Below, piece by piece: positions 25,374 through 48,652 of a stretch of 64,000 nt of DNA; the first letter of the stretch is position 1, and every line of letters begins with the position of its first letter. This stretch comes from a virus. Lineage: Duplodnaviria; Caudoviricetes. Both the position numbers and the translations under genes were made by a program. The stretch is from IMG/VR virus record IMGVR_UViG_3300031992_000016, positions 1 through 64,000 of that record. The stretch is one strand, 5' to 3'. The notes under the pieces were generated by a model. It saw only the letters and a program-made list of their open reading frames with translations, searched no databases and was not told the origin of the DNA.

Positions 25374-26079
25374 TCCTTATAGTTGAAAATTTAAAAAAAA
25401 TTTGATATAATATATATGTAAGATGAAGGGAGGAAGTAAATGATGGATTTTGAAAATGCTAAGCAACAGCTGATGGATTGGATTGGTGCGTCACCTTTCT
25501 CTTGGAAACTTGCGGTTTTAGCTGAGATAGAGCAAATTCAAACTTGGGATGAATTGCAGCGTATGGCTCGGCAGTGGGGTGTTACTTTTCAGTGATACCA
25601 AAGGCGGGTAAATAAATTGGGGCCAATATTCCGCCACCCCTGAATATATTTAATGGCAAAGGAGGCAAAAAGTATGGAAGCTTTGCAAAAGAATAAGATT
25701 ATATTCACCTATAAGAACAACGATAATGTCTATGCGCATGATATTAATCTGGAATTTTCTATCGGAGAACCTAAGTTAAGTGAAATTCATTCGATGTGCA
25801 AGGATTTTGCACGAGTAATGGGTTTCTCGTCTGAACAGGTTGAAGAGTATTTTGGAGAGGACGTGTGGGACATTGACTAAATTGTTGCGGCTGGACCTGG
25901 ATATAAATCAGTTGATGCAGAAGTTGCAGGATGGCGATTGCTCTGAATCTGAGCTGAATTTTCTTAAGAACCTGTATCATGATTTGGACGAACTCTTTAA
26001 AGACCTCAAAAACTTGAAAAATTAAAAAATTTTTGATATAATATATATGTAAGGTTGAGAGAGAAATCAATCAATCCTG

Positions 26080-26301: not shown

Positions 26302-26497
26302 TTACGCGCTGCTCGCGCCGTTTAAGAGGTGGCAAGGAACCCAGTCGCCAGAGCAAAACATGGGCAAGCCCCACGAAACTGAGGCCGTAGAGCCGAGCAC
26401 GTGAATCGCGATAAGTCGTGCGAAGGGAGTACTGGGATACAGGGCTGAGGTCACTCGCGAAGGTGGCGAAACCTTAACCATACGTGCGATTTTATAT

Positions 26498-26652
26498 GGG
26501 AAGTGATTGACACATCAGGGTAGTGTCCGCTGTGATAAATCACCGACTCCGGGCAAACAGGAGCTAATGCGTAAGGGCAATAGAGCATTTAATTGCACGC
26601 GCCGAAGTGGATCCGCACATCCACTGGGGTTCAAATCCCCCACTTTCCACCA
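26498..26652 (+). ncRNA. Mini tmRNA-like / Ala-acceptor tRNA mimic (155 nt)
   Basis: GGGAAGT/ACTTTCC acceptor with G3:U70, A73, CCA, T-loop TTCAAAT; interior is several hairpins, not D and anticodon arms. Confidence 0.65.
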
Positions 26653-26655
26653 TAT

Positions 26656-26731
26656 ACCCCTATAGCTCAACTGGCAGAGCATCTGACTCTTAATCAGAGG
26701 GTTCAGGGTTCAAGTCCCTGTGGGGGTACCA
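26656..26731 (+). tRNA. tRNA-Lys(CTT)
   Basis: Cloverleaf, CCA. Confidence 0.95.
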
Positions 26732-34659: not shown

Positions 34660-34776
34660 AAGACCTGTCAGCAATTATCTTTTTGCATTAGGAGCACGGG
34701 GTTCCAGGTTCGAATCCTGGGTCGGGGATTATTCCCCGGCTAGCTCAACTGGTAGAGCACGTTATTAGCGGGTCTT
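34660..34776 (+). ncRNA. ACAGCAA-family RNA, copy 3, with circularly permuted tRNA domain
   Basis: AAGACCTG/CGGGTCTT stem, TCAGCAA; T arm 34704-34720, loop-closed acceptor 34721-34740, D arm 34743-34758. Confidence 0.85.
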
Positions 34777-37354: not shown

Positions 37355-37447
37355 AGCCCCTTAGTTCAACGGTAGAACACCGGTCTCTAAAACCGTTATA
37401 TCCCTCTGAAGGAGGTAGTCTGGGTTCGAATCCCAGAGGGGCCGCCA
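37355..37447 (+). tRNA. Amber-decoding tRNA (anticodon CTA), probably Gln; extended variable arm
   Basis: AGCCCCT/AGGGGCC acceptor (unpaired 1:72), G73, CCA; loop CT-CTA-AA at 37385-37391. Confidence 0.9.
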
Positions 37448-37451
37448 ATCA

Positions 37452-37561
37452 TCGACACGTACAGCAAATATAAAGAGTAATCTTTATGTCATGGGTTCAA
37501 CTCCCATCCTGCACACAGTGCATGTAGCTTAGTTGGTAGAGCGAAAGAATATAAGTGTCGA
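37452..37561 (+). ncRNA. ACAGCAA-family RNA, copy 4, with circularly permuted tRNA domain
   Basis: TCGACAC/GTGTCGA stem, ACAGCAA; TCTTT/AAAGA stem, T arm 37491-37507, loop-closed acceptor 37508-37524, D arm 37527-37542. Confidence 0.85.
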
Positions 37562-43524: not shown

Positions 43525-43626
43525 TCTCCCTTGATTTTTTTTAAAATTTTTGGTATAATATATATGTAAGATAAAGAAAAGTCCTACGGTCTTGAAAAAG
43601 ACTAAGAGAAAAAGGAGAGAAAAAAA

Positions 43627-45159
43627 ATGAGTGAATTTCTTAACAGCTTAAAGGTTGCTACTAACATGACCCATACGACTAATGGCGCTCTTACCTATAA
43701 GTCTACGCTTAACAAGGTGTATGATTTGTTCGCTCAGGGTGCGGCTATGCGTAATGGCGATGAATCTATGTGTCGTTCTTTGTTTATGTCTGCATATCAT
43801 GAAAATCCTACGCTGGCATTAAAGTGTCTGTTCTATTTGCGTGATATTCGTGGCGGTCAAGGCGAGCGGCGCTTCTTCCGCATTGCTATTCGTTCACTGG
43901 CTCAGAAGTATCAAAAGGAAATGTCTAATCTGGTAAAGTATATTCCTGAATTTGGTCGGTGGGATGACCTATATACTCTTGTAGATACCCCTCTGGAAAA
44001 TGAAGCATTTGCTTTTATGAAGAAGCAGATTATGCTGGACTTGGACAGCAAGACCCCTTCTTTGCTTGCTAAGTGGCTGAAGTCTGAGAATACCTCTTCT
44101 CAGGAGTCTGTGCGCTTGGCAACTAAGACTCGTCTGGCTTTCGGTCTGTCTGCGCGGCGTTATCGTAAGATGCTGTCTCTGCTTCGTAATCGTATTAACA
44201 TCGTTGAAACTCTGATGTCTCAGAACCGCTGGGACGAGATTGAGTTTGATAAGCTGCCTTCTCGGGCTGGTATTATTTATAAGAATGCATTCGCACGCCA
44301 TGACATTACTAAGGCTCGTTATGAAGCATTTATTAAGGATGAGAACACTAAGGTCAATACCGGAACTCTTTATCCTTATGATGTTGTTCATGAAGTATCT
44401 AAGTTGTGGAAGGGTTGGTATAACTATAAGCTGACTAAGGACGTCAATGACGTTGAACGTTTGGCCATCAATAAGTATTGGGATAATCTGACCGATTATT
44501 TCAATGGTGCAACTCTGAACGCGCTGGCTGTTGTAGATACCTCCGGTTCTATGACTAGTGGGTCTGGAAATATTGCTCCTATTGATGTCGCTATCGCTCT
44601 CGGTATGTATTGCGCTGACCGTGCGCAGGGACCTTTCCATAATCACTTTGTTTCTTTCAGCCGCCGTCCTGAGTTGATTGAAATTGAGGGTGTGGATTTC
44701 TGCGAGAAGGTAAGCAATATCTATCGTCAGAACCTGTGTGAGAATACCAACATCGAAGCTACCTTTGATTTGCTTCTTAACACTGCAAAGCGCGCTCATC
44801 TGCGTCAGGATCAGCTTCCTCAGTCTCTGATTATCATCAGCGATATGCAGTTTGACCGGGCAACTGGCCGCTACTGTAATGATGATGAAATGGATGCATG
44901 GGCTAACACTTTGTTTGAAACTATTAATCAGCGCTGGGAAAATGCCGGATATGAGATGCCTCATCTTATCTTCTGGAACGTAAATGCTGCTTCTGGTGGC
45001 GGAAACATTCCTATGCGCGACAGTGGAAATGTTACTTACGTCAGCGGTGCTTCTCCTGTTATTCTGGAACAGGTGCTTACGGGCAAGACTGGCCAGGATG
45101 TCATGCTGGACAAGCTGATGTCTGAACGCTACGCTGTTATCAAGTCTATTACTGAGTAA
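43627..45159 (+). CDS. DUF2828-family protein (helical TROVE/Ro60-like N-terminus plus vWA domain)
   Basis: TNGA..Y.ST, FYLRDIRGGQGER, GRWDDL, LLAKWL.SE, LYPYDVV, VVDTSGSM, IISDMQFD, IFWNV, VSG.SP. Confidence 0.85.
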   Translation: MSEFLNSLKVATNMTHTTNGALTYKSTLNKVYDLFAQGAAMRNGDESMCRSLFMSAYHENPTLALKCLFYLRDIRGGQGERRFFRIAIRSLAQKYQKEMSNLVKYIPEFGRWDDLYTLVDTPLENEAFAFMKKQIMLDLDSKTPSLLAKWLKSENTSSQESVRLATKTRLAFGLSARRYRKMLSLLRNRINIVETLMSQNRWDEIEFDKLPSRAGIIYKNAFARHDITKARYEAFIKDENTKVNTGTLYPYDVVHEVSKLWKGWYNYKLTKDVNDVERLAINKYWDNLTDYFNGATLNALAVVDTSGSMTSGSGNIAPIDVAIALGMYCADRAQGPFHNHFVSFSRRPELIEIEGVDFCEKVSNIYRQNLCENTNIEATFDLLLNTAKRAHLRQDQLPQSLIIISDMQFDRATGRYCNDDEMDAWANTLFETINQRWENAGYEMPHLIFWNVNAASGGGNIPMRDSGNVTYVSGASPVILEQVLTGKTGQDVMLDKLMSERYAVIKSITE

Positions 45160-47075: not shown

Positions 47076-47248
47076 ACGAATTAATGAATTAGAAAGCACT
47101 GTACAAAGGTATGAAGCAGAAAATTTCGCATTGCGTGTGGAGCTTAATAGGCTTCGAGATGAATCAGCAACAATACAACAGCAAGCCGAATTTGGCAAAG
47201 CAACTGAAACTTTTATTAAAGAAATCAAAAGGATTATGAGGTGAGATT

Positions 47249-48652
47249 ATGGCATATTGTGGATATGTAGTTAAGGTAGAACATCTTCGTAAGCATACCA
47301 ATGCGGACCGTCTGCAAATTGCTACTTTTTTTGGTAATGATACTATTGTTGGTATGAACACTCAGTACGGTGATATTGGTGTTTATTTCCCTGTTGATGG
47401 TCAGTTATCTGAGCGCTTTTGTGAGGTAAATGACCTTGTGCGCCGCAAGGATGAAAACGGTAAGCAGGTTGGCGGTTATCTTGACCCTGATAAGCGTAAC
47501 ATAAAGGCCTTGAAGCTGCGTGGTGAAAAGTCTGATGGTCTTTATCTGCCTATTACTTGTTTAGCTGACTTCTGCAAGATTTCTGATTTGAAGGTTGGTG
47601 ACACTATTGATACTGTCAATGGTGAGCTGATTTGCCAGAAGTACATTCCTCATTCTAATGCTCGCACTCATGCTGGCGGTGCGAAGGGTGTAAAGAAGGT
47701 CAAGGCCAACATCGCACCTACTTTCTATGAACATGTTGATACTGCTCAGTTGGCTTATAACCTCAACGCTTTTAAGCCTGGTGATACTGTTCAGCTGACC
47801 TTGAAGATGCATGGCACTTCTGGTCGTACTGGGTATCTACCTCTGGTACATGTAAAGCAAACTTGGTTTGATAAGTTGTTCCATCGTCCTGGCAAGGAAT
47901 ATAAGGAGTATGGTTATATTACTGGCACTCGTCGTGTAGTCCTGGATGGGAAGCGCACTGGTGGTTTCTATGACTCTGATGATTTCCGTGAAGCTATGGC
48001 TGCCAAGTTCGATGGTAAGCTCCGTAAGGGCGAAGTTGCCTATTATGAAATCGTTGGATTCCAGGGACCTAATGGTGCTCCTATTATGAGCCAGGTTCAG
48101 AACTCTAAGGTAAAGGACCCTGAATTTACTAAGCAGTATGGTTCAGTAACTACTTTCTCTTATGGTTGTGAGCAAGATGGTGGCTATGAAGCTAAGAGCA
48201 TCCTTGATCCTGGCGTAGAATTTAACAAGGCTCCTTGCTGTGAAGTGTATGTCTATCGTATGACTATGGTCAATGAAGATGGTGATGTAGTAGAATATTC
48301 TCCTGCTCAGATTAAGGAGCGTTGTGAGCAGATGGGTATTCATACTGTAATGGAATTTGAAACCTTCATAATTCCTGATATGATTCAGCTACCTGACGAT
48401 GTTGGGTCTTTACAGGCGGTCGATGCTGGCGAATATGTTCTTCGTAAGGTTGAGCAGTATTTCGATGGTCCTGACCCTATCGGTAAGACCCATGTGCGCG
48501 AAGGAGTAGTTGCTCGTATCCTTAACCGTACTAACTTCGCAGTTTATAAGCACAAGAACTTCTCTTTCAAGGTGTTGGAAGGCATTGCCAAGGATGAAGC
48601 TACCGCGCCTGACATTGAAGAGGCTCAGGAAATAATGGAAGATGGAGTTTAA
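47249..48652 (+). CDS. RNA ligase (DRB0094/Rnl2-like) with N-terminal OB domain
   Basis: H.NADRL, YFP.DG, KLRGEKSDG; motif I TLKMHGTS; EGVV; K.K. Confidence 0.85.
   Translation: MAYCGYVVKVEHLRKHTNADRLQIATFFGNDTIVGMNTQYGDIGVYFPVDGQLSERFCEVNDLVRRKDENGKQVGGYLDPDKRNIKALKLRGEKSDGLYLPITCLADFCKISDLKVGDTIDTVNGELICQKYIPHSNARTHAGGAKGVKKVKANIAPTFYEHVDTAQLAYNLNAFKPGDTVQLTLKMHGTSGRTGYLPLVHVKQTWFDKLFHRPGKEYKEYGYITGTRRVVLDGKRTGGFYDSDDFREAMAAKFDGKLRKGEVAYYEIVGFQGPNGAPIMSQVQNSKVKDPEFTKQYGSVTTFSYGCEQDGGYEAKSILDPGVEFNKAPCCEVYVYRMTMVNEDGDVVEYSPAQIKERCEQMGIHTVMEFETFIIPDMIQLPDDVGSLQAVDAGEYVLRKVEQYFDGPDPIGKTHVREGVVARILNRTNFAVYKHKNFSFKVLEGIAKDEATAPDIEEAQEIMEDGV

Follow-up and report, generated by a model that had tools for sequence, protein, structure and literature searches.

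An anticodon-less, tRNA-like RNA with an alanine-type acceptor, encoded within a phage tRNA array

The window that we analysed (64,000 nucleotides, the first 64 kb of a complete IMG/VR phage record of 168,960 bp with terminal repeats, from an uncultured phage) carries at positions 26498-26652 (+) a gene for a 155-nt RNA that has the frame of a tRNA and the acceptor identity marks of an alanine RNA, and that contains neither an anticodon nor a tag. Eleven distinct copies were recovered: the one in the window and ten further ones in phage and metagenome contigs. The molecular description of this RNA is one that we hold with high confidence. With respect to its function, we consider it probable that the RNA is a processed, alanine-chargeable and non-decoding tRNA mimic, which would compete for, or recruit, the factors that read the top half of alanyl-tRNA-like molecules; that it interferes specifically with the tmRNA pathway appears possible, though doubtful. 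The tRNA arrays of phages are usually read as a supply of tRNAs related to codon usage or anti-defence. An RNA that keeps the features for charging with alanine and does not decode would represent a second use of the charging machinery in infection.

The gene belongs to the first block of a tRNA array that extends over 13 kb (ARAGORN finds 33 tRNAs in the window), where a tRNA-Thr is followed after 196 nt by the 155-nt RNA, and this after 3 nt by a tRNA-Lys. The local elements are:

26014-26042 (+): promoter-like site with an extended -10; 11 of 12 consensus positions match
26497 (+): U at -1; a T precedes G1 in all copies with flank read
26656-26731 (+): tRNA-Lys(CUU), 3 nt downstream of the 155-nt RNA

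The promoter-like site, which would drive the first block of the array including the 155-nt RNA, was identified from its consensus match alone, the number of such sites in the region not being above that in shuffled sequences. Bacterial RNase P prefers a U 5' of its cut, and the U at -1 in all flanks read thus fits processing by this enzyme. The tRNAs around the 155-nt RNA also encode their CCA, and a tRNA-Lys is found within ~70 nt on the 3' side in 6 of the 11 copies (at 1-3 nt in five, and at ~70 nt in L075). The spacer directly upstream of the 155-nt RNA (26305-26490) is conserved along with it in L083 and L087 and its start has a motif in common with L081:716-755; this spacer may be a structured RNA in its own right, with a single-sequence fold (z = 0.35) that is no better than that of shuffles. 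Downstream of the array lie two genes (43606-45159 and 47240-48652), whose protein products match the PHROG families phrog_850 ('RNA-binding protein') and phrog_968 ('RNA ligase').

Relatives of the phage were reached via a topoisomerase subunit (47 related loci); the neighbouring 445-aa protein, used as query, gave no related loci. DNA similarity to GenBank phages was limited to matches of 27 nt in the T arm and acceptor, at chance level, and BLAST combined with an exact 5' pattern over 28 relatives recovered a clear homologue in G003 only. The other copies were obtained by scanning IMG/VR and a metagenome collection with IUPAC patterns made from the window and G003 copies; two frame-only patterns yielded no new copies, and a scan of bacterial genomes yielded one match, attributed to chance. 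The copies fall into three subtypes:

Subtype A, 154-159 nt: window, L083, L087, L074, L082 and L075
Subtype B, 148-152 nt: L049 (= G003) and L085
Subtype C, 112 nt: L076 (= G031), L078 and L081

The first 32 nt and the last 28 nt are near-identical in all three subtypes in the 11-sequence alignment, and the interior is not alignable between subtypes A, B and C. The G030 copy is 95% identical to that of the window. Its lineage (L082, L072) is not among the topoisomerase relatives, has a GC content of 45-48% (40% for the window) and shows a low coding density under code 11 with the largest rise when TGA is read through, which hints that the element moved between lineages, or at another recoding. 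In G029 (L075) a 64-codon ORF (L075 1315-1509) overlaps the RNA by 9 nt, its stop TGA being positions 7-9 of the element.

When TAG is read through, the late-gene half of the window's genome opens into frames of as many as 4,559 codons; the phage is therefore TAG-recoded, and according to ARAGORN the phage encodes a tRNA with a CUA anticodon. The sequence-only reading had offered, as one option, the 155-nt RNA as an SmpB/EF-Tu decoy that limits the tagging of ribosomes paused at recoded TAGs. This link found no support on comparison: the element is present in 5 of 32 related phage records, and G004 and G005, which are without it, have in-frame TAG codons, as seen in a late-gene homologue. Being present in so few of the related records, the 155-nt RNA is dispensable. 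The CUA tRNA at window 37355-37447 is labelled 'Pyl' by ARAGORN and has a long variable arm and G73, by which it looks serine-like. The window's genome is without a tRNA-Tyr; the L083 contig, which holds a near-identical subtype A copy, has a tRNA-Tyr of 92 nt.

The minimum free energy (MFE) fold of the 155-nt RNA is mildly better than that of shuffles (z = -1.97), and since this single-sequence signal is weak the case is built on the comparison with the other copies. For this we defined in the 11-sequence alignment a frame of 17 pairs, of which 8 belong to the acceptor, 5 to the D stem and 4 to the T stem. All of its 187 cells (100%) are paired and 7 of the 17 pairs are changed on both sides in a compensatory manner; the observed values were reached by 0 of 500 shuffles, and slid controls were ~55% paired. 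By this comparison the 155-nt RNA is a real RNA gene. Its frame is composed of:

26498-26505 (+): acceptor stem, 5' strand (positions 1-8, including G3); all 8 pairs form in 11/11 copies, with covariation at 4, 5 and 6
26509-26527 (+): D arm with a 5-bp stem and a 9-nt loop containing GG; 2 of 5 pairs covary
26626-26640 (+): T arm with a 4-bp stem and a canonical 7-nt T loop; 2 of 4 pairs covary
26641-26648 (+): acceptor stem, 3' strand, with U70; from the frame alignment
26649-26652 (+): discriminator A73 and genomically encoded CCA; invariant in 11/11 copies

The G3·U70, A73, CCA and T arm that were described from the single sequence are all present, and G1-C72, G2-C71, G3·U70, A73 and CCA are invariant throughout the copies. 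Pair 4:69, which adjoins G3·U70, takes four forms (A-U, G-C, C-G and U-A). The G3·U70 pair is the main alanine determinant, and its invariance, with that of A73 and CCA, beside a variable 4:69 is the pattern expected if recognition by alanyl-tRNA synthetase (AlaRS) is selected. That G3·U70 determines alanine is also cited in PMC5389517. The D-loop sequence is invariant in the 11 copies but for one position, and its GG would meet the T loop as in the elbow of a tRNA; tested against RF00005, the elbow elements (D-loop GG and canonical T loop) are kept. Thus the GACAC/GTGTC hairpin, earlier listed as one of a string of small hairpins, is present and is now seen as a true D arm. In all copies (11/11) G8 stands opposite the C that follows the T stem, and positions 49:65, which could have formed a fifth T pair, are U·C; both features point to an acceptor branch of the 8/4 type. 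The acceptor/T stack is thus probably 8 bp plus 4 bp, the eighth acceptor pair being one that never varies and hence has no covariation.

Between the D and T arms the frame is interrupted by hairpins, which in subtype A comprise one at the anticodon position followed by three others, H2, H3 and H4:

26528-26545 (+): anticodon-position hairpin with a 4-nt loop and no anticodon; from the family fold
26547-26563 (+): H2; its 4-bp stem covaries (in L075, both partners of two pairs are replaced) and its 9-nt loop is conserved
26568-26601 (+): H3, a long imperfect hairpin of provisional pairing; mostly invariant pairs and one U·G to U-A change
26606-26625 (+): H4, a variable-arm-like hairpin abutting the T arm; from the family fold

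The anticodon-position loop reads UAAA in the window, GUAA in four close copies and GUAA, GCAA or GAAA in subtype C, where the tetraloop closes a stem that contains an internal loop. The changes among these 4-nt loops are those of structural tetraloops and not of anticodons, which argues that there is no anticodon. In line with this, ARAGORN and Rfam found in the 155-nt RNA no 5-bp anticodon stem with a 7-nt loop and no RF00005 score of at least 29 bits. As judged from these sequence features, the 155-nt RNA is without an anticodon and hence would be non-decoding. H2 forms the first hairpin of an enlarged variable region, and a similar loop is seen in subtype B. For the H3 region the single-sequence MFE fold gives two smaller hairpins instead, and the family consensus fold pairs 71-75 with 100-104 and 80-84 with 95-99. 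The interior hairpins proposed earlier do occur in the MFE fold, with the reservation that the family consensus fold prefers other pairings to AATGC/GCATT. The proposed GTGGA/TCCAC hairpin is also there, directly 5' of the T arm, and resembles a class II variable arm; in this H4 the pairs at alignment columns 115/130 and 116/129 have both partners changed, and the pair at 118/127 has one. The variable region of subtype C consists of two small covarying hairpins of 3-4 bp, and 11 of the 31 pairs of this subtype are compensatory (three sequences).

The constancy of the frame and the divergence of the interior bear on the main rival reading, in which the tRNA part is a scaffold for a cargo RNA: H2-H4 would be the functional part, the frame would serve excision and stability, and alanylation would protect the 3' end. 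Such a division of labour agrees with an interior that differs wholly between subtypes within a constant frame, with the conservation of the subtype A interior (compensatory changes, conserved 9-nt H2 loop), with the presence of other small RNAs with tRNA parts in the same array, and with the parallel of engineered tRNA scaffolds. A scaffold, however, has no need of an invariant G3·U70 beside freely covarying pairs, nor of single-stranded frame nucleotides that are invariant across subtypes, and subtype C has little cargo to carry, namely two hairpins of 3-4 bp. We therefore consider the cargo reading unlikely, although it deserves to be taken seriously.

Standard searches are silent on the gene. 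Rfam at gathering thresholds and ARAGORN at default settings return nothing at 26498-26652, and at a permissive E-value Rfam gives noise-level tRNA-like matches only and no tmRNA, tRNA, group I intron or Y RNA, which illustrates that tRNA and tmRNA finders leave genes of this kind unannotated. The earlier view that the RNA has no space for a normal tmRNA message domain, has an alanine-identity acceptor and is not an ordinary tRNA was confirmed. Its suggestion of a minimal tmRNA was not: neither ARAGORN nor Rfam makes a tmRNA call, and the G030 copy scores 15.5 bits on RF00023, where the threshold is 47 bits. In the tRNA-like domain (TLD) of tmRNA the D loop is stemless and SmpB occupies the place of the D and anticodon stems (PMC3968760); in the 155-nt RNA both places are filled by RNA, in all subtypes.

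The search of the homologues for a conserved tag frame had a similar outcome, since the frames differ in length or are absent. A frame starting at GCA runs for four codons to UAA in the window, for 10 codons in L075 and for 19 in L085, has no stop in L049 and is absent from subtype C, and the H2 stem, which this frame would cross, covaries for pairing and not for coding. We accordingly discarded both the tag frame and the non-stop ORF as readings, the frames not being conserved. Minimal tmRNA was rejected as well, on its score, the D stem, the anticodon-position hairpin, the lack of a conserved tag and the tmRNA neighbours. Two records combine the element with a full tmRNA, at a distance of ~1.3 kb in G003 (333 nt, 102.5 bits) and of ~300 nt in L081 (350 nt, 81.3 bits), from which we conclude that the element neither replaces tmRNA nor is redundant with it. 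No tmRNA is found in the window's own genome (G000, 100% complete, with element), and no tmRNA-level match in G030 (95% complete, with element). The interior GUAA hairpin resembles a stretch near the 3' end of phage tmRNAs over ~13 nt only, and this likeness is unproven.

The other possibility named at the outset, that of an intron-containing tRNA, derives some encouragement from ARAGORN, which at a lowered threshold and with introns of up to 120 nt calls a tRNA-Cys with a 58-nt intron in the window copy. It was rejected because such sub-threshold calls disagree between subtypes (Cys, Gly, Arg and none) and contradict the alanine acceptor. That the RNA is still a minimal tmRNA encoding a tag, or an intron-interrupted tRNA, is thus scarcely credible: the GCA frame of the window and the forced tRNA-Cys call are set against an unconserved frame, an H2 that covaries for pairing, inconsistent calls and the lack of an intron or tRNA match in Rfam.

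The related phages do encode trans-translation RNAs. Bona fide phage tmRNAs, scoring 81-103 bits, are found inside the tRNA arrays of related records and contigs, and their tags end in two alanines. Shorter RNAs, scoring 36-39 bits on the tmRNA model, occur in relatives that are without the element and are probable TLD-only tmRNAs, judging from their sequence. These RNAs are:

L120 (G003:19504-19836): tmRNA, 333 nt
L119 (G014:10465-10814): tmRNA
L081 1279-1628: tmRNA, 350 nt
L096 1501-1597 (-) (= G015:19008-19104, identical in G021): 97-nt RNA with a G3·U70 acceptor and a T arm, 38.9 bits
G004:148351-148436: ~86-nt RNA with a G3·U70 acceptor and a T arm

Since relatives encode either full tmRNAs or 97-nt minis in the same arrays, the lineage invests in RNAs of trans-translation. 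Two other unusual RNAs were observed in these phages. L111 (G008:184187-184335) is a 149-nt tRNA-like gene with an insert of ~75 nt in the region of the anticodon loop (CUU context); the insert has D-like and T-like arms of its own and is closed by a 7-bp stem. Directly upstream of the subtype C element in L081 lies an RNA of ~95 nt (765-859) whose acceptor has 9 bp and whose T stem has 3 bp; it carries G73 and CCA and looks like a 9/3 allo-tRNA.

These tmRNA-like molecules raise the question whether the 155-nt RNA is itself a TLD-only tmRNA that titrates SmpB, of the type found in mycobacteriophage DS6A. It has the alanine acceptor and the T arm of such an RNA and, like it, no message domain; the 97-nt RNAs of relatives and the DS6A RNA score as truncated tmRNAs (38.9 and 43.2 bits), and a TLD-only RNA is known to inhibit tmRNA (PMC4131195). 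The 155-nt family scores far lower (15.5 bits, G030 copy) and gives no tmRNA match at a permissive threshold, its 5-bp D stem and anticodon-position hairpin stand where a tmRNA has a stemless D loop and SmpB (PMC3968760), and the element-bearing records are without SmpB, with a full tmRNA coexisting in two records. We consider SmpB titration of the DS6A type improbable. In particular, a covarying D stem and a hairpin fill the place of SmpB, which speaks against the RNA being a simple sponge for this protein, and a blanket inhibition of trans-translation would be odd in G003 and L081, where a normal tmRNA is encoded alongside the element.

We then looked for protein partners. The five element-bearing records encode no SmpB and no AlaRS, and no homologue of FemAB, Acetyltransf_6 or LPG_synthase_C; no conserved protein gene was found among the flanking ORFs of the copies, which were uninformative. 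Small Cys-rich ORFs lie near L075, L092 and L082 and are unalike, and there is none near the window copy. The absence of such transferases and of a conserved neighbour gene counts against a further alternative, in which the RNA, kept off the ribosome by its missing anticodon, donates alanine in a non-ribosomal transfer to lipids, proteins or cell-wall bridges. It is mainly the acceptor arm that Fem-type transferases recognise, and an invariant alanine identity combined with the loss of decoding would suit a dedicated donor; all in all, we regard the donor reading as very improbable.

Returning to the tRNA mimic that competes for or recruits top-half readers, the following sequence of events can be envisaged. 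RNase P would most likely cut the polycistronic tRNA transcript at G1 of the 155-nt RNA, and the 3' end would most likely be trimmed back to the encoded CCA. The host AlaRS, for which G3·U70 and A73 in the acceptor helix suffice, would then charge the RNA with alanine; charging of an 8/4 frame is plausible as 8/4 tRNAs with G3:U70 were alanylated in E. coli. With a tetraloop hairpin in place of the anticodon arm and three extra hairpins in the variable region, the charged molecule would not decode, and it would most likely act as a stable, chargeable competitor for AlaRS, for EF-Tu and for the tmRNA route into stalled ribosomes. The near-invariant D-arm core and the exchangeable variable region could provide a docking surface for a putative partner. 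In a variant that we consider quite unlikely, the RNA would be a dedicated alanyl-RNA kept off decoding, with a host or phage factor recruited through its invariant core and its swappable hairpins; it might for instance act as a decoy, drawing off defence toxins directed against the acceptor end or elbow of tRNAs, or serve alanine charging as a donor or sensor. If this variant is true, the 155-nt family is a branch of a large and unpublished class of anticodon-less alanine mimics in phages.

Among the known systems, the T4 species 1/2 RNAs (rnaC and rnaD) are likewise small stable RNAs (139 and 119 nt) from a phage tRNA cluster, and rnaC, like the 155-nt RNA, has its T arm close to the 3' end. 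They show no sequence likeness and, as we read them, no G3·U70 acceptor, the family model (R1) gave no match in L091 (T4 rnaC/rnaD), and they are positional analogues only. YrlA-type Y RNAs (PMC4201824) share the tRNA-like D/T elbow and the absence of decoding; their acceptor end is closed by a loop and their protein-binding stem, formed by the 5' and 3' ends, is open, unlike the 155-nt RNA with its open acceptor end and A73-CCA. A handle motif was seen at window 34660-34776 and 37452-37561 and is absent from the 155-nt RNA. The (8/4) allo-tRNAs, found in bacteriophages and bovine rumen bacteria (PMC5389517) and alanylated in E. coli when they carry G3:U70 (Mukai et al. 2017, PMC5389517), have a 12-bp acceptor branch split 8/4, as the 155-nt RNA probably has, and likewise a long variable arm, but keep an anticodon arm and decode, whereas the 155-nt RNA is without one.

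With tmRNA (RF00023) the 155-nt RNA has in common the G3·U70/A73/CCA acceptor, the T arm and the location in a phage tRNA array, and it differs in lacking pseudoknots, the H2 helix of tmRNA and any conserved tag or resume codon. In the tmRNA literature a single phage RNA, that of mycobacteriophage DS6A, is described as 'little more than the TLD' (PMC4131195, PMC11915505), along with organellar tmRNAs of ~65 nt without a coding sequence (PMC4131195, PMC11915505). Strong inhibition of tmRNA by a TLD-only molecule, perhaps through titration of SmpB, is noted there (PMC4131195), and it occurs whether the RNA is chargeable or not (PMC4131195, citing Mao 2009). We located the DS6A RNA: it is ~83 nt long, scores 43.2 bits on RF00023 and keeps the stemless D loop of the tmRNA type. 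This TLD-only tmRNA is the closest published relative of the 155-nt RNA; both are phage-encoded, with a G3·U70 alanine acceptor and a T arm, and with neither a tag frame nor an anticodon. The analogue, the only published one that we found, is a single sequence, and its inhibition of tmRNA was deduced from a similar molecule. On the tmRNA model the DS6A RNA (43.2 bits) and the G015 mini (38.9 bits) are set apart from the 155-nt family (15.5 bits, G030 copy), which represents a structurally different solution in three body plans: unlike the DS6A RNA, it has a real D arm, a capped hairpin at the anticodon position, an enlarged variable region of 2-3 hairpins and a probable 8/4 stack.
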